From Alphaproteobacteria bacterium (GTDB taxonomy: Bacteria; Pseudomonadota; Alphaproteobacteria; GCA-016699305), in contig CP064970.1 of assembly GCA_016699305.1 (NCBI GenBank), forward strand, positions 389,647 to 453,646: a stretch of DNA of 64,000 nucleotides, read 5' to 3'. Under the pieces are notes generated by a model that made no database searches, was not told the origin of the DNA, and saw only the letters and a list, made by a program, of their open reading frames with translations. The translations under genes were made by a program, and so were the position numbers. Shown in pieces: positions 11,548 to 63,872 of the stretch; position 1 is the first letter of the stretch; each line of letters opens with the position of its first letter.

Positions 11548-13110
11548 TCACGCACCCTGCAAAAGGCGACGCAGCAGATCCACATCCTGGCGCAGGTCCT
11601 TATCCGTCTGGCACAGCTCCTCCACCTTACGCACGGCGTGAATGACCGTGGTGTGGTCGCGACCACCGAAACGACGCCCGATATCCGGCAGAGAGCGCGA
11701 GGTCAGCTGCTTGGCCAGATACATCGCCACCTGACGCGGACGAGCCACCGCGCGCTCACGGCGCGTGGAGCACATCTCGGCCAGGCGCATATTGTAATGC
11801 TCGGCCACGCGACGCTGGATATCCTCGACCGTCAAGGTGCGGTCATGGGTGCGCAGAATGTCGTGCAGCACCTCGCCCACCATATCGAGGGAGATGGTCT
11901 GCCCCACGAGGTCGCCATGCGCCGTCAAACGGTTCAACGCGCCCTCTAATTCACGCACATTCGACGTGATGCGATGCGCCAGGAACTCCAACACATTGGC
12001 GGGAACGCCGCGCCGCGACTGCTCGGCCTTTGACTGCAAGATACCCAAGCGCAGCTCATAGCTGGTGGGATGAATATCCGCGCACAGCCCCCAGCCTAGA
12101 CGCGAACGCAAGCGTTCCTCGATTTGGTCCAGTTCTCGCGGAGATTTATCTGCGGAAACGACGATCTGTCGGTTCTCATCCACCAAGGCGTTAAAAGTAT
12201 GAAAGAACTCTTCCTGTGTGGAATCTTTGCCGCTGATGAACTGCACATCATCGATCATCAGCACATCGACCGAGCGAAACTCCTCTTTGAACGCCATCGT
12301 GTCTTTAAAGCGCAACGCCCGTACGAACTGATACATAAATTTTTCAGCCGACATATAGATCACGCGCCGACCGTTGTTCTGGCCACGAATATGCCAGGCA
12401 ATGGCATGCATCAAATGCGTCTTGCCCAGCCCCACGCCTCCATACAGAAACAGGGGGTTAAACGACACAGAGGATGTTTCGGCCACGCGCCGCGCGGCGG
12501 CATGGGCCAATTCATTGGGCTTACCCACAACGAATTGGTCAAAGGTAAAGCGGGCATCCAGCGGCGCGCATAAATCATCGCGCCAGTCTTTCATGGCCGA
12601 GCTTACCGCCTTGGCAGGCAGACCGTTCACAGGCAACGCCGTCCCGATCAGCGGCATGGCCGTGCGGTCCGAATTTGCGGGAAGGTCGCCGATGGCACTT
12701 GTCTGGGTCTGACCAACCACAACGGGCTGTCCCGCAGATGCAACCTCGACCGATGGCAAAACGCCAAAGCGGATGTCTTCCAGCTCGTATCCCGCCTCGC
12801 GCCAAGTGGCCGAGATCATGGCACCGTAATGCGTCTCCACCCAATCGCGCATGAATCGCGTGGGCAGGCTGATGACCACCGTGCCGTCTTGGCCGCAGCG
12901 CTCACAGCGCATGCTTTCTAGCCAGCGGCGGAAATTTTCAGTGCCGACTTTTTTGCGCAACAAGGCGCGCACACTTAGCCACAACGCTTCGGTCGAAGGG
13001 GCGGAATCGGAATCGGCATTTGAAAGACTATGCGCAGCCGAGCGGCTGACCGCGGATGGGTGAATGTTGTCGGTGTGAATGGCCCGTGCGCCCATGCCCC
13101 CTACCCCCAT
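11548..13110 (-). CDS. dnaA: chromosomal replication initiator protein DnaA
   Basis: AAA+ Walker A GVGLGKTHLMHAIA, box VII/sensor region and C-terminal DNA-binding helix-turn-helix (RQVAMYLAKQLTSRSLPDIGRRFGGRDHTTVIHA). Confidence 0.95.
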   Translation of the reverse strand: MGVGGMGARAIHTDNIHPSAVSRSAAHSLSNADSDSAPSTEALWLSVRALLRKKVGTENFRRWLESMRCERCGQDGTVVISLPTRFMRDWVETHYGAMISATWREAGYELEDIRFGVLPSVEVASAGQPVVVGQTQTSAIGDLPANSDRTAMPLIGTALPVNGLPAKAVSSAMKDWRDDLCAPLDARFTFDQFVVGKPNELAHAAARRVAETSSVSFNPLFLYGGVGLGKTHLMHAIAWHIRGQNNGRRVIYMSAEKFMYQFVRALRFKDTMAFKEEFRSVDVLMIDDVQFISGKDSTQEEFFHTFNALVDENRQIVVSADKSPRELDQIEERLRSRLGWGLCADIHPTSYELRLGILQSKAEQSRRGVPANVLEFLAHRITSNVRELEGALNRLTAHGDLVGQTISLDMVGEVLHDILRTHDRTLTVEDIQRRVAEHYNMRLAEMCSTRRERAVARPRQVAMYLAKQLTSRSLPDIGRRFGGRDHTTVIHAVRKVEELCQTDKDLRQDVDLLRRLLQGA

Positions 13111-13353
13111 CTGTCTACCTCTACCCTATGAAAGGCCTGCTCATGTCCGCCTTCCTGACCGAGCCACGGCATCGCACCGCACACTCCTTAGAAAGGATCC
13201 CTGAACAAGCCCAACTGCGCTGTTTTTGAACACGTCATACATTCGACTTTGACCTGGAAAGCCCGTTAGCCCCGCTTCTTCGAGGGTGAGCAGACTTTAC
13301 AAATGATAACGTCGATTGCAAAAATATTATCTCTAAAAAATCAGAAAAAATCA

Positions 13354-13384
13354 AGTGTTCATTTGGCAACACCAAATGAACACT
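13354..13384 (-). terminator. putative rho-independent terminator downstream of rpsT
   Basis: Perfect 13-bp inverted repeat AGTGTTCATTTGG-CAACA-CCAAATGAACACT; on the minus strand it is followed by TGATTTTTTCTGATTTTTT. Confidence 0.45.
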
Positions 13385-13564
13385 AGTATTTCAGGAGCGT
13401 TTCTTGTTTTTTCACTTGCGCTACTATAGTTATAAATTCTGTCGCAAGCGGACTTTATTTATTCAATACTCTTAATGCATCATTAATATTTACCTATCAA
13501 TGGGATTTAGACGCAATCATGCAACGAAGCTATAAAACGATGGCCGCAAGTTGCGGCGCATCGC

Positions 13565-13846
13565 CTAAGCTTGAGCGGCAGGTGTCTTGAGGGCCTTGAT
13601 ACGGCTGCAAAGGCGCGAAATCTTGCGCGATGCCGTATTGCGATGAAGGACCCCCTTAGAGACCCCACGAGCCAGCTCAGGCTCAGCCTGGCGGAACGCT
13701 TCCAGGGCGGCATCCAACTGGCCGGACTGAAGGCTGGTCTCAACTTTCTTAACCGCCGTGCGGATACGCGACAAATGCGCGCGATTGCGCAAGCGTCGGC
13801 GGGCGGTTTGACGAACTCGCTTAATGGCAGAGGCGTGATTGGCCAT
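13565..13846 (-). CDS. rpsT: 30S ribosomal protein S20
   Basis: [36 protein letters not shown]... typical S20; start set at internal Met of ORF-track 13565..13906. Confidence 0.9.
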
Positions 13847-14002
13847 GTGATTTAAGATCCCAAGCGGTGAAGATGCATTCGAAGAAGACCGTTGTATCCT
13901 TCCCAAATGTTTGCGTCAAGCCTTCATCGTGATGCCTTATCCTGATTGAAATTGAACACGCCTATCTTGACGAAAAGACCTGGCGGCTCCATATCATGAG
14001 AC

Positions 14003-14524
14003 ATGACATTGCCACATCTTGTGATCGCCCCGGATCCGCGCCTACGCCGCAAAACGCCCCTTGTGGGCAAAGTCGATTCCCGCATCGCCAAATTGATGGA
14101 TGAGATGCTGACCGTGATGTATCCGGGTAACGGCATCGGCTTGGCCGCGCCGCAAATCGGTGTGCTGGAAAGCGTGATCGTCATGGACACGGGCGAAAAG
14201 CGTGACGGCACCGAGGCCATCTACTTGGCAGACCCGGAGATTGTCTGGAAAAGCGAAGAAACGATGGTTTATCGTGAAGGTTGTTTGTCCTTACCCGATA
14301 TCTGGATCGAGATCACCCGGCCCGAGAAGATCCGCGTCAGCTATCTGGACCAACATAATAAGTCGCGCGAAATTGAGGCCAAAGGCCTGGAGGCCATCTG
14401 CCTTCAACATGAGATCGACCATCTACATGGCGTTTTGTTCGTGGATTATGTCTCGCAATTGAAGCGTGAGATGATCCTGCGCCGCTTGGACAAGGCTAAA
14501 AAACACGGGCGGATTGAAACGTGA
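14003..14524 (+). CDS. def: peptide deformylase
   Basis: Motifs [25 protein letters not shown]. Confidence 0.92.
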
Positions 14525-15177
14525 ATGTAAATATGGATACATCGGACGCGGCCAAGCCTGCCGCATCGGCTGTTCGCACAGCCATAGAGCAGGACGCCGA
14601 TCTGCTGCATGTTGTATTGGGCGAAAATCTGCTGGACCTGCATGAAAATCGAGGTGGCCTAACGGCCTGTGTGCGGCGTGAAACGATTGCTGATTGCCTG
14701 CAACGCCTACGCACGGATCGCACATGCGCATTCGATGAACTGATGGATGTATGCGGGGTCGATTATCCCGCCCGCACGCCACGTTTTGAGGTGGTGTATC
14801 AACTCCTTAGCCTGACGCGCAATCGCCGCCTGACGATTAAGGTTGCCGTGGCCGAGGATGAATCCGTTCCCAGTTCTGCCGGTGTCTTCCCTGCCGCCGG
14901 ATGGTTTGAACGTGAAGTGCTGGATCTTTTTGGCATCACGTTTTCGGACCATCCCGATCCGCGCCGTATCCTGACGGATTATGGCTTTGAAGGCCATCCT
15001 TTGCGTAAGGATTTTCCCCTGACCGGCTATGTGGAAGTCCGCTACGATCCCGATCAGCGCCGCGTGGTGCACGAACCCGTGCATCTAACCCAAGATTACC
15101 GCAACTTCGATTTTCTTAGCCCTTGGCAAGGCGATGTTCCCCTTACTTTGCCCGGCGACGAAAAAGCTTCAAAATAA
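14521..15177 (+). CDS. nuoC: NADH-quinone oxidoreductase subunit C family protein (stand-alone)
   Basis: [47 protein letters not shown] matches the 30-kDa subunit signature; no other nuo genes flank it. Confidence 0.8.
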
Positions 15178-15259
15178 AGGCGTTTCGCGAATTTCAGCGG
15201 ATAACCCTAGGATAACTTCATAGCTCCGAGCCTCTACGAGAGCCTAGAGGAAACGCAAA

Positions 15260-15982
15260 TCACGCATGCCCGATCTCAGCAGATAGACTGGCGGGGGTGA
15301 TGCCCAATTGGGCGATGGCGCGTTCCCATTTGGTTTCCAAATGGTCGTCGAACAACAAGGTCTCGGCGGACGGGGCGACCAGCCAGCCATTGGCTTGAAG
15401 CTCGGTATCCAACTGCCCCGGACCCCATCCGGCATAACCCAGCGCCAGGAAACAGCGATTCGGGCCATGGCCTTGCGCGATGGCGCGTAGGATATCGACG
15501 GTCGCGGTCAGGCACACTTGGTCATCCACCGGCACCGTGCCCTCGGACTGATAATCCGCCGAATGCAGTACAAAGCCCCTATTGTTTTCGACCGGTCCAC
15601 CGTAATGGATGCGAACGGGCGGCGTGGTGGAATCTGTTTTGATCTCCATCTGGTCGAGCAAAGAACAAAAATCCAGCGCACCAAATAGCCGATTGACCAC
15701 AACCCCCATGGCACCCGCCGGGCTGTGTGAGCAGATATAAATCACTGTGCGCGCAAAGCGGGGATCGGCCATGCCGGGCGTGGCGACCAACAAAGTCCCT
15801 GCCAAAGATCCCGAATGCTTTTCTGTCTTGTGTTCGGACAAAGCTTCGCCTTCCTCAGCACGAGCGCGAGGGCGGATCTGCGGCTTTTTCTTGTCCTTTG
15901 CAGTCAAGGCCTGGTTCGTCTCCTGAACGTATGTTTTCCCTCGATCCGCGAAAACGATGCATGATCGAGTGAATGGTGTCAC
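15260..15982 (-). CDS. YqgE/AlgH family protein (UPF0301)
   Basis: LLVATPGMADPRFARTVIYICSHSPAGAMGVVVNR motif; 5' end uncertain (ORF-track start overlaps divergent dsbD-like start). Confidence 0.7.
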   Translation of the reverse strand: MTPFTRSCIVFADRGKTYVQETNQALTAKDKKKPQIRPRARAEEGEALSEHKTEKHSGSLAGTLLVATPGMADPRFARTVIYICSHSPAGAMGVVVNRLFGALDFCSLLDQMEIKTDSTTPPVRIHYGGPVENNRGFVLHSADYQSEGTVPVDDQVCLTATVDILRAIAQGHGPNRCFLALGYAGWGPGQLDTELQANGWLVAPSAETLLFDDHLETKWERAIAQLGITPASLSAEIGHA

Positions 15983-17711
15983 AATCTATTTAACAAATAT
16001 GAGTATAAAACTTGGCGAAGGCCCAAGAAAACCAGAAAGGTTAAGACGTTTGAGGATTCTTCAATTCCCATCATTCCGTCCTGCCACGATAGGTGCCATG
16101 GCCTTAATGGCCTTGGTCCTTATTGTTTCTTTTACTATCGATACAAAAAAATCTTTAGCTAAGGAACCCGAATGGGTACGGGGGCAATATGTATCGGCAC
16201 GACTAATATCTGGCGTCATGGCCGTGGGAGATTTGTCTGCCGTCCCCATGGGAGTGGGATTACGGCTGGATCCAGGCTGGAAAACCTATGGGCCGAATCC
16301 AGGACCCGCCGGATTACCTGCGCGATTGGATTGGGGGTTGTCGGACAACGTATCAAGCAGTCACATCGCATGGCCGCCGACCATGGATTTTGAGTTCCAA
16401 GGCATCCATGCGCGCGGCTATCAAGGTGATGTGCTGTGGCCCATGACAGTACGGCCCAAGGCGGTAGGTCAGCCGATAAATATGTATTTACGGCTGGAGA
16501 TGCTGGTCTGCAAAGACGTGTGCATCCCGCAAAGCCTGACCTTGCCCATGTTCCTGACTTCCGGTCAGGCATTTCCCAGTTCCTATGCCGAGACTTTGGA
16601 CGCAGCGCATAATCGCCAGACCGAACCTGCATCCGTACATAACGAGAATGGAGAAGGAAATTCTGGCATCTCATGGATTTTGGCTTTTGGACTGGCATTA
16701 CTGGGCGGGTTAATCCTGAACCTGATGCCTTGCGTACTGCCGGTCTTATCGTTGAAGCTGCTGGCGGTATTGGGGCATGGCGGCGGCAATCGGCGTGACG
16801 TGCGATGGTCGTTTCTGGCCACGGCGGCAGGGATTGTCTTTTCCTTTTGGCTGCTGGCGGGATTCACGGTGATCTTCAAATGGGCCGGTGGAAATGTGGG
16901 ATGGGGACTGCATTTCCAGAACCCCATCTTTCTGATCGGCATGATCCTGGTACTGATGCTATTCGCCGCGAATTTATGGGGCCTGTTTGAATTCCGTTTG
17001 CCGCAGTTTCTGGCTCGAAGCCTCTCCGCGCGGCACAACGGGATGCTCGGCGCGTTTCTAACAGGATGCTTCGCCACCCTATTGGCCACGCCCTGCTCGG
17101 CACCCTTTCTAGGAACGGCGGTGGGTTTTGCCTTGGCCAGCGGCGCTTGGGACATTATTACCATCTTCACGGCCCTTGGTCTGGGGCTGGCCGCGCCTTG
17201 GTTGATCGTGGCCGCATGGCCGCGACTGGCCACCGCCCTGCCGCGTCCGGGGGCCTGGATGATCCCGCTGCGACGCGTCATGGGCGTGGGGCTGGCCGTG
17301 ACGGCGCTGTGGCTTGGCGCGGCGGCACTGCCCGATTCCTTGCGCACCTCCGATGATCCGCGTTGGCGACATTTTGACGAACGCGCAATCTCTGAGCTGA
17401 CATCTCGCGGGGCCGTGGTTTTTGTGAACATCACCGCCGATTGGTGCCTGACCTGTCTGGCCAATAAGAAACTGGTCTTGGAACGGCCAACCATCCGCGC
17501 CCAATTATTCGATCAGCCGCGCCGATTGGTGGCCATGCAAGGCGACTGGACTCATCGTGACGAGGGAATCACCGCCTATCTGCTGCGCCACAAGCGTTAC
17601 GGCATTCCCTTTAGCATCGTCTATGGCCCCGGCGCGCCCGAAGGGATTATTTTGCCTGAATTCCTTCATGAGGATGATATTTTGAAAGCTTTGAACCAAG
17701 CCAAAGGCTGA
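15957..17711 (+). CDS. DsbD-family thiol:disulfide interchange / cytochrome c biogenesis membrane protein with C-terminal thioredoxin-like domain
   Basis: Central polytopic domain with LMPCVLPVLSL and LATPCSAPFLG Cys motifs; C-terminal WCLTC thioredoxin motif; start codon uncertain. Confidence 0.8.
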   Translation: MHDRVNGVTIYLTNMSIKLGEGPRKPERLRRLRILQFPSFRPATIGAMALMALVLIVSFTIDTKKSLAKEPEWVRGQYVSARLISGVMAVGDLSAVPMGVGLRLDPGWKTYGPNPGPAGLPARLDWGLSDNVSSSHIAWPPTMDFEFQGIHARGYQGDVLWPMTVRPKAVGQPINMYLRLEMLVCKDVCIPQSLTLPMFLTSGQAFPSSYAETLDAAHNRQTEPASVHNENGEGNSGISWILAFGLALLGGLILNLMPCVLPVLSLKLLAVLGHGGGNRRDVRWSFLATAAGIVFSFWLLAGFTVIFKWAGGNVGWGLHFQNPIFLIGMILVLMLFAANLWGLFEFRLPQFLARSLSARHNGMLGAFLTGCFATLLATPCSAPFLGTAVGFALASGAWDIITIFTALGLGLAAPWLIVAAWPRLATALPRPGAWMIPLRRVMGVGLAVTALWLGAAALPDSLRTSDDPRWRHFDERAISELTSRGAVVFVNITADWCLTCLANKKLVLERPTIRAQLFDQPRRLVAMQGDWTHRDEGITAYLLRHKRYGIPFSIVYGPGAPEGIILPEFLHEDDILKALNQAKG

Positions 17712-17940
17712 CACCGCTGCGCATGCCGTTATAATACATATTTATCAATGTATAATGCTCGATATCGCATCCATTTTGTATGAATAAGACGCACAAAAAA
17801 AGATCCCCAATTATCCCGGCAATCTGGCCACACTCACAAATTCGGAATGACCTGCCCGCTTGGCAGGCTATTTTTCATGATCCCGACTTGACCCCAGCCC
17901 CACACTCGCGCAAAAAGACGTGTGCTAGGAAGGGAATCGC

Positions 17941-18816
17941 ATGGCTAATCTCAAGGACTTACGCAATCGCATCGCCAGCGTGCGCGCGACGTGCAAGATC
18001 ACCTCGGCCATGAAAATGGTCGCGGCCAGCAAATTGCGACGCGCTCAAACGCAGGCCGAGAACGCGCGGCCTTATGCCGAGTCCTTGCAGGATATGCTGG
18101 CCTCGGTCTCTCAAGGCATCCCGGCGCATGACGATTCTTTGCCGGCCTGGGCGCGTGCCAGCGGCAATAAAAGTCCGGCACTGGTGGTTCTGACGTCGGA
18201 TCGCGGCCTGTGCGGCGGCTTCAACGCCTCGGTCGTGCGCGATGTGCGGCACAGGGTTGATGAGTTGGAGAAACAGGGAACGCCGCCCATCCTGATCTGC
18301 ATCGGGCGGCGTGGGCGCGACATGCTCAAACGGACCCACAGCAAATATATCGTCCACAGCATGGATTTTGGCCGCACGCCCTCTTATGCCGTGGCGCAGG
18401 ATTTGGCGGAAACCCTGGTTAAGCTGTTCACCCAAAGCAAACTGGACAGCTGCGATCTGATGTTCAACGCCTTCAAAAACGCCTTGCAGCAGGAGCTGCG
18501 CATGCGACGTATCATGCCCGCGCCCATGGACCCGCCCGAAGAGGCCGCCGCCAAGCCGACGGTCTGGCGTATCTATGAGCCGGGGCGAAACGAGATATTG
18601 GCCGGCCTGTTGCCCTTGAACATGAAGACGCAAATTTATCTGGCGATGGTCGAAAGCATGGCAGGCGAACATGCCGCGCGCATGACCGCTATGGACAGCG
18701 CCACACGCAATGCCAGCGAGATGATTGATCGCTTAAACCTGCGTTACAACCGGCTGCGCCAGGCGGCCATCACCACGGAGATGATCGAGATCGTCTCCGG
18801 CTCTGAGGCGATGTAG
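17941..18816 (+). CDS. atpG: F0F1 ATP synthase subunit gamma
   Basis: MANLKDLRNRIASVRATCKITSAMKMVAASKLRRAQ... and C-terminal ITTEMIEIVSGSEA. Confidence 0.95.
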   Translation: MANLKDLRNRIASVRATCKITSAMKMVAASKLRRAQTQAENARPYAESLQDMLASVSQGIPAHDDSLPAWARASGNKSPALVVLTSDRGLCGGFNASVVRDVRHRVDELEKQGTPPILICIGRRGRDMLKRTHSKYIVHSMDFGRTPSYAVAQDLAETLVKLFTQSKLDSCDLMFNAFKNALQQELRMRRIMPAPMDPPEEAAAKPTVWRIYEPGRNEILAGLLPLNMKTQIYLAMVESMAGEHAARMTAMDSATRNASEMIDRLNLRYNRLRQAAITTEMIEIVSGSEAM

Positions 18817-21163: not shown

Positions 21164-24100
21164 TTACTTCCAGTTCGCCGCAATCACCGTGGCCAAAGAG
21201 TCCTGATAATGTTGCGGCAGGGTGTTCTCATTCGCCGCAGGCGGCGCGAATGCGGCCATGGCATTGACCAAATTCTCGACCTGGTTCGCCAGCAAAGCCT
21301 TGCCGTCCGAAGTCTTGAATTGCTCAATCTGGGCCACCGCTCCGCTGCCATACCAGCCACTGATGGTCATGCAATCTTCCGTTCCGATGATGCTGACCTC
21401 GAGATCGCTGTTCAGCTTTCTGAACCAGATTTGGTCGCTGGCGATACCTGAACCAAACGACATCATGTCGCTATTGCCGGCAGTGCTGTCATATTCCTGG
21501 ATGGAGTCAACATACGAGCCACGAGCCATCACATAGGTGTCGTTGCCCTGCCCGCCAATCAGCCAATCACGCCCTGTGCCACCATCCAGCGTGTCATTGC
21601 CCGCATCGCCGTTGAGTGTATCATTGCCATCCTGGCCTTGCAGCAGATCGTCTCCATAGCCGCCGTTTAGAATATCGGCACCCACGCCGCCCGCCAGTCT
21701 GTCGTTGCCATCTTCGCCATTGATTTGATCATCGCCGCCATCGCCGCCCAGCGAGTCATGACCCGAGCGGCCATAGACGTAATCATTGCCGTCGCCGCCA
21801 TTGATGGTGTCCGCCGTGGCATAGCCAGTTAGAACGTTATCTTCCGTTGTTCCTGCCAAAACCTTGGCCTTCACCGCATCGACTCTCCAGACGGTTCCAT
21901 CGGCAAATTTGATATTCTCGATCACACTGTTCGTTGCGCCGTCCTGAGTGAAATAGCTCGACACATTCAGCGTATCATCTGTGCCTACGAGGCTGATCAC
22001 CAGGTTGCCATTGTCGTTCCTTAGCATCGTCTGTGCAGCGGAGATTCCCGCACCCAACAGAACCGTATCGGCATTCACGCCCACGGCGTCAACGTCACCG
22101 TTGTTGATCGTGTCTTGCCCGCTTCCAAAGCCAAACAGATAAGTATCGGCACCGTTGCCCCCACTCATCTGATCATCACCTGTACCACCGTCGAGCGTAT
22201 CGGCTCCGTCTCCCCCGTAGAGATTATCGCGACCTTCCATACCGCGCAGCACATCATTCCCCGCGCCGCCATCCAGTGTATCGTCGCCAAAACCCGCACC
22301 GCCGGTCAGCGTATCGTTACCGCCATCACCGTATAAACAGTCATTGCCGTAACCGCCGTCGATGATGTCATTGCCGCCATGCGCATAGATCGTATCATCG
22401 CCAGAGGCCCCGGCCAGGGAATCAGCCGTCTCAAATCCTATCAGAGTGTCACTGGAGTTGGTGGCGACCGTCACCTTGGCCTTGATCGCCGCCACATTCC
22501 ACACCGTGCCATCGGCGAATCTGACGTTCTCGACGGCATGAGGCGTCGCTCCATCCTGACTGAAATAGTTTTGAACCGTCAGTTTGTCATTGGTGCCGAT
22601 GATCGATAAGGCCAAATTATCCCACTCGCGAGAGGCCACCACATCCGCGACCGCCACGCCGGCAGAAAACTGGATGGTATCGGCTTTTACGCCCAACGCA
22701 TCCACGTCGTAATTATTGATCGAATCCTGTCCGCTGCCACGCCCGAACAGATAGACATCCGCGCCATCGCCTCCCGACAACACATCATTGCCCAAGCCAC
22801 CATTAAGAGTGTCATTGCCGCCATAGCCGTATAGCGAGTCGTCACCCACCCCACCCAGCATGCTTTCCGACGCCGCCGTGCCCGCCTTGTACATGGCAGC
22901 AGGAGCGGCGCTCAATCTGCTCTTGACCGCGGCATAGTCCCATACCGTACCGTTGGCAAAGCCAATAAGCTCCACCGCGTTGGCTGTCGTGCCGTCCTGC
23001 GAGAAATAGCTTTGAACCGTCAGCCTGTCATTGGTGCCGATGATTGACAGAACCAGATCATCGCCCAAACGGGAAGCAGCCACATCCGCCGGCACGATTC
23101 CTGCCTGAAAAATGATGGCGTCCCTGGACTGGCCGAGAGCATCATTGTCATTATTGCTGATGGTATCCTGACCGCTGCCGCGCCCGAACATATAGCTATC
23201 AGCCCCATCACCCCCGCCAAGCGTGTCATTGCCTAGACCACCATAGATGCGGTCATTGCCCGATTCCCCATAGAGGGTATCGTCACCCTCATCGCCGTAG
23301 ATCGCATCATCATCGGCGCCGCCATATATATAATCATTGCCCGCGCCGCCCAATAACCCGTCATAGCCAGCGCCGCCACTGATGTTGTCAGTGCCGTCAC
23401 TGCCGCTGATCGTGTCAGATCCATCATAGCCATTGATCTGGTCATCGCCCGCGCCGCCATTGATGTTGTCCGCGCTGGCATAGCCGTACAGCGTGTCTTT
23501 TTCATTCGTGCCCAGCAAGGTCTTGGCCTTCATTGTGGCCACGTCCCATACCGTGCCGTTAGCAAAGCCAATAAGCTCCACCGCGTTGGCTGTCGTGCCG
23601 TCCTGCGAGAAATAGCTTTGAACCGTCAATCTGTCATTGGTGCCGATGATCGACAGAACCAAACTATCGCCCAGACGGGAAACAGCCACATCCGCCGGCA
23701 CGATTCCTGCCTGAAAAATGATGGCGTCCCTGGACTGGCCGAGAGCATCATTGTCATTATTGCTGATGGTATCCTGACCGCTGCCGCGCCCGAACATATA
23801 GCTATCAGCCCCATCACCCCCGCTAAGAGTGTCATTGCCTAGACCGCCATACAGACGATCATTGCCCGATTCCCCATAGAGGGTATCGTTACCCCCGTCG
23901 CCGTAGATCGCATCATCACCAGCACCACCATTGAGGCTGTCATTGCCCGCGCCGCCGAGCATCCCGTCATGGCCATCCTCACCATAGAGGACATCGGCCC
24001 CATCATCGCCATACAGCGAATCGCTGCCGCCATTGCCTTGGATTGTGTCCCCACCCGCGCCGCCACGAATAGTCTCTGCACTGACAGAGCCATACAGCGA

Positions 24101-53640: not shown

Positions 53641-54090
53641 TCATAGAAAGTCGATCGCGTTTGCAGCCAGAATCAGGGTGACAGCCATAATGGGCAGCCA
53701 TAGCGGATAACGTCCGCGCCGCGCCATGATCACGAATAGGCTGGCGAATAAGGTCGCCGATAGCAGCAGCAGAGCGGCTTGCAGGGTTAGGCCGAAAATA
53801 GCCGCCAGGATCGCACCGCAAAGTCCCATTCCCAAATCGAACGCCAATGCCTCTATGCCAATGGAAGTATGGCAGGTACGGCAGCGGCCCTTAAAGATCA
53901 GCCAGGAATAAACGGGGATCAGGTCGCGTGAGGTCAGTTTCCGCGCGCAAGCGGGGCAGTAGGACGGCTTGACCAGAATATCCTCGCCCCGTGGCAGACG
54001 ATAAGCCAGCACTCCCGCAAAGCTGCCAAGGACAGAGCCCAGGGCGAACCCCGCCAGGAACAAAAAGATTGTGGGAAGCGATGCCATCAC
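53641..54090 (-). CDS. prepilin peptidase N-terminal-domain protein (tetra-Cys zinc module, no catalytic domain)
   Basis: 149 aa; CPAC...CRTC motif between TM helices as in PilD N-terminal region; too short to hold both catalytic Asp regions. Confidence 0.6.
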   Translation of the reverse strand: MMASLPTIFLFLAGFALGSVLGSFAGVLAYRLPRGEDILVKPSYCPACARKLTSRDLIPVYSWLIFKGRCRTCHTSIGIEALAFDLGMGLCGAILAAIFGLTLQAALLLLSATLFASLFVIMARRGRYPLWLPIMAVTLILAANAIDFL

Positions 54091-54137: not shown

Positions 54138-54959
54138 TTAGTGGCCAACCCATTCCGCGCCTCCGAAAATTACGTCCTCGCGGTTTACCACGGAACTGAG
54201 CGGCGGCATGTCCAATACTGCACACGCTGACCTCTCTACAATAAGCTCCGGATTCGTTCGTGCCTTATGTTTGGGGGGAAGGGAAATCAGTTCCTTTGCA
54301 CTAAAGGGGGCTGATACAATACGCCGCTGAACATATGCACCTCGCTTGAATAGGGTCGGGTAGTTGTTCCAGTTCACGTCTTTTGCATGAAGCATGTCGT
54401 GCTTCTGCTGGCTACTTTTTCCTATAAGGTCCTTGTGGCTATAATATGCGCTTGCTGCCATGCTCAAGCTGTTTTTAGTGGCGTCAATTTCGCGCCATAG
54501 GAAAACGTTAGCAGCTTCTGTGCGGTTTGGAACATTCCATACCCGCGCGTCGAATGTCGGCATTTTATCGGCGTATATCGGCATTCTCTCAAGAATTAAG
54601 CGATAGAATACCAAAGTTGCCTGCGCAGCAAGCTGACTTGTCATCTTGGCCACGCGCCCATCAAACCAAATTTGACTCTGGAAAGTGTCGCAGTGCCAAG
54701 TCAAGGTTATCTCGTCGCTTTGTGTATAGCCCATACATGCGCCGGTATCGCGAACAAGTGCTAATGTTGTGTCAACCATACATCCTGAAAACGTCGCATC
54801 GAATGGTCGGTCCATACCACGTGTGAAGTTGTGAAATGATCTACCGTCAATCCGTGCCATAGCAGGTAACATTGGCATCAAGCGCCGATTCGCCTCTATC
54901 CCCTCATACAGCTTCATTCTGTTGCCAAGAACGTCTTTTATTGTTCTAAGCTTAAGCAT
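54138..54959 (-). CDS. tRNA(His) guanylyltransferase Thg1-like protein (3'-5' nucleotidyltransferase)
   Basis: ARIDGRSFHNFTRG and GYTQSDEITL match Thg1 family palm-domain motifs; moderately lower GC. Confidence 0.7.
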   Translation of the reverse strand: MLKLRTIKDVLGNRMKLYEGIEANRRLMPMLPAMARIDGRSFHNFTRGMDRPFDATFSGCMVDTTLALVRDTGACMGYTQSDEITLTWHCDTFQSQIWFDGRVAKMTSQLAAQATLVFYRLILERMPIYADKMPTFDARVWNVPNRTEAANVFLWREIDATKNSLSMAASAYYSHKDLIGKSSQQKHDMLHAKDVNWNNYPTLFKRGAYVQRRIVSAPFSAKELISLPPKHKARTNPELIVERSACAVLDMPPLSSVVNREDVIFGGAEWVGH

Positions 54960-57984: not shown

Positions 57985-58098
57985 TACCAATAAGATGATA
58001 AAGAAAACCAGCCGAAACAAAGAATATGACTAAGGACGATTAACTAATTCTTGGTCAATTGCACCTAGTGTGATCGGGCGTAGCCTGGCTCTGTCAAG

Positions 58099-59865
58099 AT
58101 GGGTGCATTTGTGAGTCAATCAGTCACCGTAGATCATTCAGGGGAACATCTGGAAATCCCCAAACGCCAATTTCAATTGGCGCTGGCCGAGCAGGGCGTG
58201 CATGCGGCGAAGGGACGTCATTTCACAATTCCCGAGATATTGCAGCGCAATGGCTTTTATTCGTTGGTTCCTATCTCGAAGGAACGCAAATCCTCTAATG
58301 GCGCAGTGCGTGATGACTTGACGGCTCAAGGATTGCGTCTTTATGTTCCCGCATCCATGCAGACGGCTATGGGCATTTGTTTACTGGAATTACGCAAAGG
58401 CGTATTGCGTATTGCCGCCGGAGACCGAGTTTCAGACGACGATGTCGAAAATATCCGTCATGTGCTGCAGATATCCAGCCGTGATGTCAATCGGGTCGAA
58501 ATAGAACCCTGGGACCGCGCCGATCTTGCGCGACTGATGCGCGAACAGTCAGAGGTTCCCAGCGAACGCCTATTGCGCATCTTTAATGCACTATCCAAAG
58601 ATCCTGACGACGCCACGCTTGTTGAACAAGCCGTGAATGACATTCTGGCAGAAGCCTTGCAGTTGCGCAGTTCGGACATTCATTTGACCTTGCTGGAAGA
58701 AGACACGCGCTGCTGGATTCGTTACCGTGTGGATGGCGATATCATGTATCGCCATTTACTGCCGCATTCCGTGATGGCTCCTATTGCCACGCGCATCAAG
58801 ACTGACGCCAAGATGGACGCCGCTGATCGTCAGCACCCTCAAGATGGTCGTCTTGGCTGTGACTGGCAGGGCCACAATATCGACGTGCGCGTAGCCTGTC
58901 TGCCTATTGCTCCTGCGGGCGAGAAATTGACCTTGCGCCTTCTGGATCGAGAAAATCTGCGCACATTTAATGAGCTGTTCGCCTATACGCCCAATGTCGC
59001 GCAGCGTCTGCGTAGAGCATTGCACGGGCATGTGAAGGATGGCGGCATCATCATCGTTAGCGGTCCGACTGGCTCGGGAAAATCCACGACGCTTTATGGC
59101 GTCATTCAAGAAATCGACCGCTCGGCACGGGCCGTGTATTCCATCGAAGCGCCCGTTGAATACGAAATGCCGCTGGTGGATCAGACGTCTGTGACGGATA
59201 ATTCGGCCAATACGATCGCCGATATGATCCGCGCTTTGATGCGACACGACCCCGATGTGATCATCATCGGTGAAATGCGCGATGGCGACACGGTGGAAGC
59301 CGCGCTGCGTGCAACGGAATCAGGGCATCTTGTGGTCACCACCTTGCACGCCGTGGATGCCATTCATACCATCGACCGCATTGACGGTTTCTTAGCCTCC
59401 AGCTATCGCACCAGCGGCCTATATATTCTAGGCCATGCGCTTGTGGCCAGCATTTCGCAGCGGCTGATCAAGACAGTATGCCCAGCCTGCCATGAAATGG
59501 TATCTGCCGGAGAAGTATTCGAGAACGATGCGGAAGTTCTGTCGATCCTGGAAATGAATGCAGCCGACAAGGTGGCGCGCGCGCATCCAGGTGGTTGTGA
59601 CCTGTGTAACCATACTGGATTTTTGGGTAGAGCCTTGCTGCTCGAGGCCTTGTTTCCTCCCGACGACCATGCAGGACGCCGATCATTTACGGAGATGATC
59701 CTGGCTAATGTGACGAGTTCGGTTACAGATATCCCCGGCACTCTATTCATTCCCCGCAGCCGATCAATTGCCGATCTGATGCAGCGTCAGGTGGTGGATG
59801 CAAACATGGCATCAAGCTTGTTGTTCGAAGAAATGTCATCCAAGAGGACTCGTGAATCGTCATGA
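58099..59865 (+). CDS. GspE/PilB-family secretion/pilus assembly ATPase with atypical N-terminal region
   Basis: Walker A GPTGSGKST, Walker B IIIGEMRD, His box TTLHA, tetra-Cys CPAC...CDLC; first ~270 aa not recognisable. Confidence 0.85.
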   Translation: MGAFVSQSVTVDHSGEHLEIPKRQFQLALAEQGVHAAKGRHFTIPEILQRNGFYSLVPISKERKSSNGAVRDDLTAQGLRLYVPASMQTAMGICLLELRKGVLRIAAGDRVSDDDVENIRHVLQISSRDVNRVEIEPWDRADLARLMREQSEVPSERLLRIFNALSKDPDDATLVEQAVNDILAEALQLRSSDIHLTLLEEDTRCWIRYRVDGDIMYRHLLPHSVMAPIATRIKTDAKMDAADRQHPQDGRLGCDWQGHNIDVRVACLPIAPAGEKLTLRLLDRENLRTFNELFAYTPNVAQRLRRALHGHVKDGGIIIVSGPTGSGKSTTLYGVIQEIDRSARAVYSIEAPVEYEMPLVDQTSVTDNSANTIADMIRALMRHDPDVIIIGEMRDGDTVEAALRATESGHLVVTTLHAVDAIHTIDRIDGFLASSYRTSGLYILGHALVASISQRLIKTVCPACHEMVSAGEVFENDAEVLSILEMNAADKVARAHPGGCDLCNHTGFLGRALLLEALFPPDDHAGRRSFTEMILANVTSSVTDIPGTLFIPRSRSIADLMQRQVVDANMASSLLFEEMSSKRTRESS

Positions 59866-61088
59866 AACTTTGGCATGCCAAATATGCTACGGTATTACCC
59901 AGCGGCCTGGTGAAGGTCGACGAGGAAGACTATTACCTTCCCACCATGAACGATGTTCGAAGGCAATTGCGTACCCATGGTCATTGGCCCATTCGCATCG
60001 AGCAGCGTCGCAAGCCGCTGTTGGAATGGATGGATGTGCGTACGCGGGCTTGGCAGTTGCAGTTGTTGCGTGCCCTACGCTTTCAGACAACAACAACCTC
60101 TGCCGGCACCGCTCTGCTTAATATTATCGAGAACGAAAGCGATGCTCGCCGCCGTGTGGCTTTTCTTCCAACCCGTACCGTGCTGAAAGGCGGCGGCGCG
60201 TTCGCCTCGGCACTTAAGGAATTGCATCTGTTCGATGCGGCCACGCTTGCTATCATCCTAGCAGGCGAACGCGGCGGCGATCTGAAAGGCGTTATTAATC
60301 ATGCCATTCAGCATATCGAAGAGAAGGGGCATCAGATTAAGGCGTTTACGGGCGCATTGGGCTGGCTGATGTTTGATATCATCTCCGTGATCGGCTCTCT
60401 CTGGGGCGCTCAATACGGATTCATTCCGTATCTACGTGACGCTGGAATCAAATCTGAAGATGCGGCTGCCGTTGAGAAATTTACTAAATCCTTGAACCTA
60501 GCGGCCACAGTCAATGGCTGTTTGATGTGGCTGTCTACCCTTGTCAGCATCGGTGCCGCCTGGGTGGTTTATTCCTTCTGGATGAACCGCCATAAAACGG
60601 ACCACTTGGCTGCCCGAATCATGACGCGGGTACCGTTCTTCAGCGCATATTTGCAGAATAGCTCTTTCCATGACACGGGAAAACTGATGGCGCGACTGCT
60701 GCGTGGGCGTGTGCCATTGGACGAGTCGATCCAGATCCTGGTGGGTTCATCGGTTGAGCCGAGTGTCAGAGATTACTGGTCGGGTTGCCACCGGCGCATT
60801 ATGGCCGGTGCGGATCCCATGCGAGCCATGGCACGTCATCCACTGAACAAGGCGGAACGCGACCATATGGCGAAGATTCAGTCTGTAGACCAGCTGGCGG
60901 AAGTGTTTGAAGCCATCGCCACCGAACGTCAGTTGGCTGCTAAGGATGATCAACGTCGAATCATTCTTATGGGCATTATGGCCTTAGTATTTTTGTTCAC
61001 AGCGGTCGTACTAACCATGATTTATCTACTGACCTTGCAAAACCAGGGCCTTAATGAGAGCCTTAAGGGCATGCGAGGAGGCAGCTAA
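59862..61088 (+). CDS. GspF/PilC-like inner-membrane platform protein
   Basis: 408 aa, three predicted TM segments arranged as in T2SS-F proteins; 4-nt overlap with the ATPase gene. Confidence 0.6.
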   Translation: MKLWHAKYATVLPSGLVKVDEEDYYLPTMNDVRRQLRTHGHWPIRIEQRRKPLLEWMDVRTRAWQLQLLRALRFQTTTTSAGTALLNIIENESDARRRVAFLPTRTVLKGGGAFASALKELHLFDAATLAIILAGERGGDLKGVINHAIQHIEEKGHQIKAFTGALGWLMFDIISVIGSLWGAQYGFIPYLRDAGIKSEDAAAVEKFTKSLNLAATVNGCLMWLSTLVSIGAAWVVYSFWMNRHKTDHLAARIMTRVPFFSAYLQNSSFHDTGKLMARLLRGRVPLDESIQILVGSSVEPSVRDYWSGCHRRIMAGADPMRAMARHPLNKAERDHMAKIQSVDQLAEVFEAIATERQLAAKDDQRRIILMGIMALVFLFTAVVLTMIYLLTLQNQGLNESLKGMRGGS

Positions 61089-62101
61089 TGTGGGGTCTGG
61101 ACGGATTCTTGCAACAAAAAACTCATAGTCAGGAAACAAGCCTGGCTGTGGGAGAGGCAAGCTTACCTAAAGAAATATCGCTGACGACGATTGAAGCGCG
61201 TGAGGCATTCTTGCCGGCAGGCTTGACGGGAGGATGTTGCCCCTATGTGGATGGCGAAGCGGAAGTCATCGCCTGGCATGCGGCGGCAGAGGCGTGCGAC
61301 AGTGAACGCTTGCACCTTGTTTGGACCGTTTACGAGAGCCATGTCTGGTATCTTGCCGTGCCGTCCGCCGATTTGTCGTCGCATCCGGATAGTTGGTGTC
61401 CTTTGGTGGCCTTTCTGCCTGGAATGCCGCAGGCATCAGAAGGCGCAGGAACATACATTTATGGTGATGTCGAAACCTCCGCCTTGATGGCGTTGTCTTC
61501 CAACAGTTTAACGATTCATCGCGGCACACCCGCCGTGTTGAAGGCCAAGGCCGAGAAGGTCAGTCGTGAACTCGGCGGAGTGCCGCTTGTTGAGTTGACC
61601 GAGGAACGTTTGTTGCAGTTACGCCCAGTGGCCTGGAAATCCCTGTCGTTGATCGAAGACACAAGTCGTCGTTGGTTGACCCGCATGGCAATTTTTTGCG
61701 GCTTAGGCGTTGCGACTGTCGCATTGGGTATCTCTCTGCTGGCCGGAAGCGCCTTGCTATTCAGTCAACGTGAATTAGCAGAGACCAAAGAGAACACACG
61801 GAAACTATCTCAGGAATTGCTGTTGAATGCACATAACGCAGCCATCAACCCACTGCGTAATCAAGTGGCCGATTTCGTTGATCTGAACCAATCCCTGGTT
61901 AATCTGGGATCGTGGCTTAAGCGCTATGAGATTAAGGCGGGCAAGTTGCGCTGGGTGGCCATGGTACCGCTAAGCGTCACTGCTGACCGCATTCGTGCGA
62001 TTGGCGGCTATGTCCTGGAAATAACGCCAGAGGGGGCCATTGTTGGTAACCAAGGGGAAGTAGAGGCGCGCGAAAAAGAGCGTCAAGGGAGCAAATCATG
62101 A
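61088..62101 (+). CDS. hypothetical bitopic membrane protein (possible GspL/PilM-N-like assembly component)
   Basis: Cytoplasmic ~190 aa, one TM (IFCGLGVATVALGISLLAGSALLF), periplasmic coiled-coil region; translationally coupled in operon. Confidence 0.4.
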   Translation: MWGLDGFLQQKTHSQETSLAVGEASLPKEISLTTIEAREAFLPAGLTGGCCPYVDGEAEVIAWHAAAEACDSERLHLVWTVYESHVWYLAVPSADLSSHPDSWCPLVAFLPGMPQASEGAGTYIYGDVETSALMALSSNSLTIHRGTPAVLKAKAEKVSRELGGVPLVELTEERLLQLRPVAWKSLSLIEDTSRRWLTRMAIFCGLGVATVALGISLLAGSALLFSQRELAETKENTRKLSQELLLNAHNAAINPLRNQVADFVDLNQSLVNLGSWLKRYEIKAGKLRWVAMVPLSVTADRIRAIGGYVLEITPEGAIVGNQGEVEAREKERQGSKS

Positions 62102-62616
62102 ATACCACCGCCGAAAATGGAAATTTCCATAAGATGATTCTGCCGAATCATCTGAAGGTTACCTCGATGGTGGCCTTAGATAGAGCGACCATGATGTTGT
62201 TGATAACGGTGTGGCTGGCCGCATTGCTGATGGTAGGCATGGCAGTCTTTACTACCGGCATGGCTTTTGAAACCATGAGGCAATCTCACGAGGCAAAAGC
62301 TATTATTCCGATTGTCCCTTCAATCCGCTCGGCGGCAGCGAATTCAGACCAGGTTAAAGAAATAGGGAAAAGGATTGAAAAAATGTTCACCGGCATTAAG
62401 ACTGAGGCGTCTTCGAACACTCTAAGAATATTTACCGGAAGTGCCGATATGTACATGAGTTGGGTGACATCCCTAGGCTATGTGGATGTCATTCAGCGGG
62501 ATGTGCGCTGGTCCATTCGGGACATGTGCGTGGGAAGCGAATGCTCGGGTAGTCAGAGCAGCCTGATGTCAGCGCTTTTGATCGCTGAAAGTTTCACCTT
62601 CGAGGAGAAACAATGA
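62098..62616 (+). CDS. hypothetical N-terminally anchored periplasmic protein (possible GspM/PilO-like)
   Basis: Single N-terminal TM (MMLLITVWLAALLMVGMAVF) then ~130-aa domain; lower GC; last gene of operon. Confidence 0.4.
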   Translation: MNTTAENGNFHKMILPNHLKVTSMVALDRATMMLLITVWLAALLMVGMAVFTTGMAFETMRQSHEAKAIIPIVPSIRSAAANSDQVKEIGKRIEKMFTGIKTEASSNTLRIFTGSADMYMSWVTSLGYVDVIQRDVRWSIRDMCVGSECSGSQSSLMSALLIAESFTFEEKQ

Positions 62617-62682: not shown

Positions 62683-62708
62683 CAAAAAGGGCCGGTCAAC
62701 GACCGGCC
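62683..62708 (-). terminator. rho-independent terminator downstream of DUF465 gene
   Basis: Perfect 9-bp GC stem GGGCCGGTC-AAC-GACCGGCCC, followed on the minus strand by TTTTT. Confidence 0.6.
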
Positions 62709-62732
62709 CTCGCTGTAGGTGGGCAGATACAT

Positions 62733-63191: not shown

Positions 63192-63872
63192 ATGACAGGA
63201 CGCATTATTGCCGTCGCTCAGCAAAAGGGCGGATCGGGAAAGACGACGTTGGCGGCGCATATGGCGGTCGCCTGGGCGCAAATGGGGCATCGGGTCGCCA
63301 CGATGGACATCGATCCACAAGGCAGCCTCAGCCGCTGGTTCGCGGTGCGTGAGGCGCAAATGGGAAACGAATCCGGTCTGGTGCATTGCCAATTGGCCGG
63401 ATGGCGCGTGCAAAAGGAAGTTGAGAATTTGGCGGCGCAGCACGATATCGTGTTGATCGACAGTCCGCCCCATACCCAGACCGAGGCCCGTCTGGCTCTT
63501 CGCGCGGCGGACCTGGCCTTGATCCCCTTACAGCCCAGCCCCATGGATATGTGGGCCACTCAGCCCATTTTAGACCTGGCGCAAGACGAGCAGACCCCTG
63601 CCCTATTGGTCCTAAACCGCATGCCCCCGCGCGGAGCCTTGGCCGAGGCAGCCGTGGCGGAATTACCGAAACTGGGCGTACCCATCGCGCGGACGAGACT
63701 GGGCAACCGCATCGCCTATGCCGCCGCCTTGGTCAGCGGCCGCAGCGTCACCGAAACCGGCGGCTCCCGCCGCGCCAGCGAAGAAATCAGCGCCTTGGCG
63801 GAAGAGGTCTTGAAGCATATCATCCGCCTCGAACGGAAAACTTCATCTACAATGCGGCGCAAAAGCGCGTGA
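63192..63872 (+). CDS. ParA/MinD-family ATPase (orphan ParA-like)
   Basis: Deviant Walker A QKGGSGKTT, IVLIDSPP; no parB seen downstream within the window. Confidence 0.85.
   Translation: MTGRIIAVAQQKGGSGKTTLAAHMAVAWAQMGHRVATMDIDPQGSLSRWFAVREAQMGNESGLVHCQLAGWRVQKEVENLAAQHDIVLIDSPPHTQTEARLALRAADLALIPLQPSPMDMWATQPILDLAQDEQTPALLVLNRMPPRGALAEAAVAELPKLGVPIARTRLGNRIAYAAALVSGRSVTETGGSRRASEEISALAEEVLKHIIRLERKTSSTMRRKSA

Follow-up and report, generated by a model that had tools for sequence, protein, structure and literature searches.

An alphaproteobacterial E-F-L-M operon as the probable detached inner-membrane core of a lineage-specific type IV filament machine

Introduction

A stretch of 64,000 nucleotides of an alphaproteobacterial genome (contig CP064970.1 of assembly GCA_016699305.1; the window in what follows) contains four coupled genes, here termed E, F, L and M, that encode an assembly ATPase, an inner-membrane platform protein and two bitopic proteins (i.e. 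proteins with a single transmembrane (TM) segment). No gene for a pilin or a secretin accompanies them. The locus raises the question of whether four genes make up a minimal machine, are what remains of one, or are part of something larger. A sequence-only reading of this DNA had called the operon minimal, and had supposed that it might belong to an incompletely described pilus or secretion machine. The supposition was well founded, since the operon belongs to a poorly described system of the type IV filament (TFF) kind, and its L protein has 265 relatives. We consider it likely that E-F-L-M forms the assembly core, in the inner membrane, of a TFF machine specific to a lineage of Micavibrio and related, mostly uncultured Alphaproteobacteria, split here from its partner genes.

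The machine appears throughout the Micavibrio-like lineage, and may bear on the question of how epibiotic predators such as Micavibrio hold and feed on their prey. Most of its genes have so far been called 'hypothetical' or have been misnamed ('T2SS', 'TadA'). Candidate subunits that lack Glu5, together with an L protein bridging the GspL and BfpC/PilO2 folds, would test the generality of the assembly model. There is also a lesson for annotation: an E-F-L-M operon that stands alone need not be a minimal machine, but can have been detached from a larger conserved system.

Conserved gene order in related loci

Relatives were found by scanning an alignment of the L family over one genome per GTDB species. 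This gave 265 relatives, and gene order was counted in the best 80 of these 265 loci after clustering all open reading frames (ORFs). All 80 are alphaproteobacterial or Micavibrio-like (some being filed as Bdellovibrionales or Rhodospirillales), and come from uncultured Alphaproteobacteria or from Micavibrio; M. aeruginosavorus HCB189 (locus L076) is a cultured member of the set. By clustering, E, F, L and M are all present in 56 of the 65 loci with room for four genes. Genes for a ~590-aa secretin and then a ~460-aa ASH protein lie directly before E in 54 of the 56 loci that have at least 3.6 kb of upstream sequence. After M there are one to five genes for pilin-like proteins of ~200-260 aa (54 of the 62 loci with 1.5 kb or more of downstream sequence). 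The description of the operon as a minimal machine is therefore not supported. Short peptidases of family PF01478 (157-180 aa) adjoin the cluster in 17 loci. Together the genes of the relatives make a complete type IV filament set with non-canonical subunits.

Beyond the pilin-like genes there is usually a hybrid histidine kinase with 7TMR-DISM and PAS domains, encoded on the opposite strand and clustered in 27 loci. A response regulator stands beside the kinase in some loci, and the Micavibrio clade has a single-domain receiver just before the secretin. Examples of these kinase and receiver genes are at 12287-16198 (minus strand) in L007, and at 13455-15776 (minus) and 2808-3236 (plus) in L076. 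Such neighbours suggest dedicated signal control.

The cluster is not always in one piece. A single locus of the 80 resembles the window, namely L067, which has E-F-L alone between unrelated flanks. In L049 (8712-12310) and L055 (8826-12234) genes for a small lipoprotein, ASH, L, M and a pilin-like protein follow one another without E-F, and the N-terminus of the pilin-like protein is HSIVGPALFIMAVLA. The split in these two loci is complementary to that in the window. Cluster fission is thus rare but recurrent.

Absence of the partner genes from the window

Hidden Markov models of the secretin, ASH, pilin-like and short A24 peptidase families found no match in the six-frame translation of the 64 kb, in agreement with the earlier observation that neither a pilin nor a secretin is present there. 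A scan of the window for class III-like signal motifs returned false positives only, and no pilin with a class III signal peptide is encoded with the system in the 64 kb. Since these partners are absent here, and the secretin, ASH and pilin-like genes are near-constant in the relatives, we regard the operon as a detached core. The partner genes are presumably located elsewhere in the source genome.

Two nearby genes had been associated with the operon by the sequence-only reading, i.e. a truncated prepilin peptidase and a ParA protein, but synteny provides no link to either. A homologue of the first lies within 10 kb in one of the 80 loci, and ParA is matched in one locus only, by a 28%-identical ORF. 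The 149-aa ORF at 53641-54090 (minus strand) matches A24_N_bact and has no peptidase domain. It consists of a TM segment, a CxxC...CxxC region and a second TM segment, and the next gene is too close for a peptidase domain to fit in between. Its NCBI name is 'prepilin peptidase'. L055 has a 46%-identical homologue (17868-18413, minus strand) that is likewise A24_N alone. In view of the separate short PF01478 peptidases of the relatives, this lineage may encode the two halves of a PilD-type enzyme in different genes. The ParA gene (63192-63872) was considered as a TadZ/CpaE-like component and rejected, because the protein passes the cut-off of the NCBIfam equivalog ParA_partition and has only that single match among the relatives.

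The ATPase E and the platform F

The assignment of E as a GspE/PilB-type ATPase and of F as a GspF/PilC-like platform is upheld by the Pfam domains. E matches T2SSE at 5e-84 over residues 170-520. It has a Walker A sequence (GPTGSGKST, aa 322-330), DPDV at aa 384-387, and a zinc-type tetracysteine site (CPAC...CDLC, aa 461-503) typical of assembly ATPases. Compared with solved structures E scores 205 bits with EpsE/GspE, 187 with PilB, 87 with BfpD and 40 with CpaF. It nevertheless falls far below every NCBIfam equivalog cut-off, with 267.8 bits for the GspE model TIGR02533 (cut-off 630) and 51 bits for the TadA-family model TIGR03819 (cut-off 373).

The N-terminus of E had been described as unrecognisable over ~270 aa. 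Its atypical nature is confirmed, while its length is reduced to ~165 aa because the Pfam domain begins at residue 170. The domain analysis proposed for this region shows that it is conserved within the family, with a mean column identity of 46% over 41 members for aa 1-165. Neither singly nor as a family profile did it match anything in Pfam or the Protein Data Bank (PDB), and a Pfam scan of the 41 N-termini found neither T2SSE_N nor any other consistent domain.

F matches T2SSF at 7e-17 in two stretches, as a single two-repeat protein, and has hydrophobic segments at aa 162-180 and aa 364-394. Its NCBIfam scores (ComGB 40 bits, GspF 37, PilC 27) are all far below the cut-offs; for the GspF model TIGR02120 the values are 37.1 and 424 bits. 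Denise et al. 2019 (PMC6668835) define a generic TFF system by an ATPase, an inner-membrane platform and a major pilin, with secretin and peptidase optional. The window supplies the secretion-type ATPase (PF00437, E) and the polytopic platform with two repeats (PF00482, F). In the same study 884 'generic' TFF systems were left unclassified, and Micavibrio and Alphaproteobacteria are not mentioned.

The bitopic proteins L and M

Neither L nor M has a Pfam or NCBIfam match at E<=0.1. Both are real genes, given the 265 relatives of L and the 71 of M (among 1.84 billion representative proteins). The window L is at most 45%, and the window M at most 36%, identical to any relative. There are 28 invariant columns in the L family across 22 aligned sequences. 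Searches of the PDB with profiles of the L, M, E N-terminal and ASH families found nothing significant.

The structures of both proteins were predicted, as the sequence-only reading had proposed. An AlphaFold2 model of L, calculated on the family alignment, has a mean pLDDT of 86. It comprises a cytoplasmic actin-like alpha/beta domain (aa ~40-185) and a C-terminal periplasmic alpha/beta domain (aa ~275-337); between them runs a very long helix, which includes the TM segment (aa 200-225) with a coiled helix beyond it. The fold matches are with PilO2, BfpC, GspL and PilM. The best are with the type IVb pilus proteins PilO2Bp of B. pseudomallei (R64-type) and BfpC of enteropathogenic E. coli (PMC3984277); GspL is structurally more distant from L than these two. 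Sequence identity with PilO2Bp and BfpC is ~9% in the structural alignment, and the L family profile found no PDB sequence. By predicted fold L is a GspL/BfpC/PilO2-like bitopic protein. It does not belong to the PilO2/BfpC family PF06864 by sequence, as it has no Pfam match of any kind.

M was modelled using homologues from the representative-protein search. The predicted protein has its N-terminus inside, a TM segment at aa 32-57 and a periplasmic ferredoxin-like domain, and the pair Cys144/Cys149 is invariant. Topology and fold are compatible with GspM, PilO or PilN. The claim that L and M have no evident sequence similarity to such proteins thus stands, as does the GspL-like character of L (by fold) and the GspM/PilO/PilN topology of M; the fold of M is not specific to these proteins.

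Partner proteins in the relatives

The secretin of the relatives is a lipoprotein (Pfam PF00263, with a lipobox). Its best scores are with MshL (112 and 100 bits, the cut-off being 250), and those with GspD and the type IVb PilN are lower. The ~460-aa protein that follows has ASH / 'choice-of-anchor D' Ig-like domains, and its C-terminal ~90 aa (e.g. L007 5393-6838) contain the conserved block LIGTVGxRAxxxxPDGxTxVVxxGxE...GKKKxLxLE. This block may resemble the secretin-binding HR domain of PilP/GspC, although a PDB profile search gave no support.

In the pilin-like proteins a short basic leader is combined with a conserved Gly and a hydrophobic stretch of ~21 residues. In one clade the motif is ...aG followed by IAIGPILFIIAILAILAAAIAAGS, and in the Micavibrio clade it is G followed by NVLFLILIAVALFAALSYAV or by SALVYILIAIALLAAL. 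The one to five copies are paralogues of a single non-canonical family, all without Glu5. The family profile has three PDB matches at E<1; all are type IV pilins, with Gly(-1) in register, and Pro, Leu or Tyr is aligned at the position of Glu5.

The cluster of Micavibrio aeruginosavorus

Genes GMV_1929-GMV_1939 of M. aeruginosavorus ARL-13, listed in Additional file 4 of the study by Wang, Kadouri and Wu (2011; PMC3189940), are the same system as judged by their match to the HCB189 locus L076 in gene order, annotation and gene lengths (Table 1). The M. aeruginosavorus cluster differs from the window in being complete, running from peptidase to kinase with two pilin-like genes; its E is 40% and its L 29% identical to those of the window. 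In the published table (PMC3189940) the secretin, ATPase, peptidase, response regulator and kinase alone carry functional names, and F, L, M, ASH and the pilin-like genes are 'hypothetical'. In this species, the one cultured relative with RNA-seq data, all of the genes are transcribed, the partner genes in both life phases and GMV_1931 most highly; its expression index rises about five-fold from 9.9 in attack phase to 53.8 in attachment phase (PMC3189940). The leading expression of this pilin-like gene is as expected of a major structural subunit. Elsewhere ARL-13 has a complete Tad locus (GMV_527-540) and a PilT-containing locus resembling that of type IVa pili (GMV_1534-1544), so GMV_1929-1939 is a third, distinct system.

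Comparison with known systems and alternative explanations

Tests at the equivalog level for T2SS (type II secretion system), type IVa and type IVb pili, the mannose-sensitive haemagglutinin (MSH) pilus and the Tad pilus all failed. The PilB and PilC equivalogs, PilMNOP, PilQ and retraction ATPase PilT that would mark a type IVa pilus were not found as a set in this system. The MSH pilus is approached in having the secretin most similar to that of the relatives. Moreover, the MSH gene order is mshL-M-N-E-G, which the block of secretin, accessory protein, ATPase and platform in the relatives resembles. However, the secretin is under the MshL cut-off, there are no MshI/J/K, MshM/N or MSH pilins, and L and M of the relatives come after the platform gene, not before the secretin. 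The description that suits the system best is that of a variant of the type IV filament superfamily specific to one lineage, and the window contains a new, fragmented member of this variant.

A number of observations weigh against our reading of the operon as a detached filament core. The partner family models are silent throughout the window, and in a search with a profile of fused ASH and pilin-like sequences the matches listed (120 of 202) were all ASH proteins, none of them bearing the IPI58 locus tag of the source genome. The pilin-like proteins of the relatives lack Glu5 and match none of the N_methyl prepilin models, and their PDB matches are below threshold (E 0.03-1). The match to the fold of M is non-specific.

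The same architecture could serve secretion. In a functional T2SS, as proposed for Micavibrio in 2011 (PMC3189940), the pilin-like proteins would assemble into a short pseudopilus in the periplasm, and this would push folded hydrolases through the secretin. This is a rival on function and not on architecture, and we regard it as possible but doubtful. The four roles and the relative order E, F ... L, M are those of a T2SS, and the order secretin-X-E-F...L-M parallels gspD-E-F...L-M. E is nearest to GspE/EpsE with the tetracysteine site kept, L has the GspL-like arrangement of actin-like cytoplasmic domain, one TM segment and periplasmic ferredoxin-like domain, and M is small, bitopic and ferredoxin-like. 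No retraction ATPase is seen beside the cluster. Wang et al. (PMC3189940) further describe a 'functional type II secretion system' without GspC, G, H and K in ARL-13, although which genes were counted is unclear, and report that secretion genes are raised in attachment phase. Yet the Gsp equivalogs are far under their cut-offs, the GspL and GspM models do not match L and M, and the region equivalent to N1E of GspE is unrecognisable. The pseudopilins GspG-K and GspC are absent from the window and from the related loci, which have instead the ASH/Ig-like protein and the paralogues of one Glu5-less family in those places. The secretin is closest to that of a pilus, and L is nearer to PilO2/BfpC than to GspL. 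In short, the product may be an adhesive pilus or a secretion pseudopilus. Secretion is the likelier from the GspE-like motor and from the D-E-F...L-M order, whereas the MshL-like lipoprotein secretin and the BfpC/PilO2-like L favour a pilus, which is also predicted from the strongly expressed single major subunit. T2SSs likewise have one major pseudopilin.

The affinities of L lead to the further suggestion of a type IVb pilus of the R64/BFP (bundle-forming pilus) kind or, following the public annotation of E, a Tad pilus. L has its best folds in PilO2Bp and BfpC and shares their actin-like cytoplasmic domain; the secretin is a lipoprotein, as are those of type IVb systems; the adjacent peptidase is short like TadV/CpaA; and the NCBI label on E is 'TadA'. 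All the same we think this very unlikely. E is GspE/PilB-like rather than BfpD-like, and its ranking of GspE over CpaF led us to reject the Tad reading of its annotation. L has no PF06864 match, gene order and pilin type are unlike those of type IVb systems, there is no CpaF/TadA-type ATPase, TadB/TadC pair, Flp-type pilin, CpaB or TadZ, and Micavibrio has its separate Tad locus. Alternatively the operon might be an orphan remnant, its partner genes lost and its four genes non-functional or decaying. The 64 kb contain no partner gene, housekeeping genes flank the operon, and the window L and M are rather divergent from their relatives. This explanation is nonetheless improbable. The four ORFs are intact and tightly coupled, E has lost none of its catalytic or zinc-site motifs, and every residue that is invariant in the L and M families is present. 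Genes of type IVa pili are commonly dispersed over several loci (PMC6668835), and relatives of the present system are split too.

A possible mechanism for the machine

If E-F-L-M is the assembly core of a TFF machine, its working may be imagined by analogy with known systems. Hexameric E would dock beneath the polytopic F and power its rotation or shifts. The family-specific N-terminal domain of E could bind the actin-like domain of L, so holding E in place, just as N1E of GspE binds GspL and BfpD binds BfpC. L and M would pair or dimerise through their periplasmic alpha/beta domains and connect the motor to the outer-membrane part. This outer part would come from the neighbouring genes of the relatives, i.e. 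the lipoprotein secretin, the periplasmic ASH protein (a possible bridge to the secretin), the pilin-like proteins and the short A24 peptidase. Pilin-like subunits processed by the peptidase might then be polymerised towards or through the secretin, and the machine could act in predation by prey attachment or by secretion of enzymes. More tentatively, the system could be an unnamed TFF branch confined to Micavibrio-like predators, with a fibre that lacks the otherwise near-universal Glu5 and with the ASH/Ig-like protein in the place of GspC/PilP, specialised for epibiotic predation as a means of prey attachment or as a feeding conduit.

Layout of the operon and its flanks

The four ORFs are all on the plus strand at 58099-62616, exactly where the sequence-only reading had located them, and their coupling is borne out by overlaps at all three junctions (ATGA for E/F, TAATG for F/L and ATGA for L/M). 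The positions of the features are collected in Table 1.

Table 1. Features of the operon region in the window, and the genes of the M. aeruginosavorus ARL-13 cluster
Feature	Window position	Strand	Size	ARL-13 gene	ARL-13 length (bp)
Presumed promoter region, AT-rich intergenic stretch 5' of E	57985-58098	+	114 bp		
E, GspE/PilB-class assembly ATPase	58099-59865	+	588 aa	GMV_1935	1842
E N-terminal region (aa 1-165), family-specific domain	58099-58593	+			
F, divergent GspF/PilC-type inner-membrane platform	59862-61088	+	408 aa	GMV_1934	1221
L, bitopic assembly protein	61088-62101	+	337 aa	GMV_1933	996
M, small bitopic protein	62098-62616	+	172 aa	GMV_1932	531
GC-rich hairpin between operon and convergent DUF465 gene	62687-62711		11-pair stem		
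A24 peptidase				GMV_1939	507
Response regulator				GMV_1938	564
Secretin				GMV_1937	1785
ASH protein				GMV_1936	1632
Pilin-like				GMV_1931	738
Pilin-like				GMV_1930	774
Histidine kinase				GMV_1929	2334

In the public annotation E is the 'Flp pilus assembly complex ATPase component TadA', F a 'type II secretion system F family protein', and L and M are each a 'hypothetical protein'; the locus tags of the source include IPI58_02050 and IPI58_02055. The public record of E (QQR69479.1) has 584 aa, starting 4 codons downstream of the start used here.

The stretch before E has a GC content of 0.41, compared with 0.53 in the operon. No sigma-70-like match was found within it, and it is a putative promoter region. 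The hairpin beyond M has its T-tail on the minus strand, and so scores as a terminator of the DUF465 gene; it may also stop transcription of the operon. The first 1.4 kb downstream of the operon holds this opposite-strand DUF465 gene and then parA. The upstream flank comprises fliI and genes for a CtrA-like regulator, the A24_N-only protein and a Thg1-like protein, together with tsaD, a tatA/B-type gene, tatC and rsmE. The flanking genes on both sides are housekeeping genes.

Other features of the window

A 1874-aa RTX-type protein is encoded at 21164-26788 (minus strand), with 26 HemolysinCabind stretches and six HCBP_related domains. It is reminiscent of the hemolysin-related proteins highlighted when the Micavibrio genome was published, and is consistent with a predatory lifestyle of the source organism. 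Beside its gene is an island of low GC content (~26000-30700; 0.41-0.48, compared with 0.56 for the window) that may have been horizontally acquired. The island contains two small ORFs (27121-27474 and 30360-30704) that are paralogues and share the start MTDQPEST..KPQLPPLPE, a 385-aa SLT/lysozyme-like protein (28362-29519) and two unknown proteins (148 and 225 aa).

The presence of dnaA (11548-13110, minus strand) places the window near the region of the chromosomal replication origin. The Thg1-like protein (tRNA-His guanylyltransferase family, PF04446, 1e-25) is encoded at 54138-54959 (minus strand), between the A24_N gene and tsaD; such genes are uncommon in Alphaproteobacteria.

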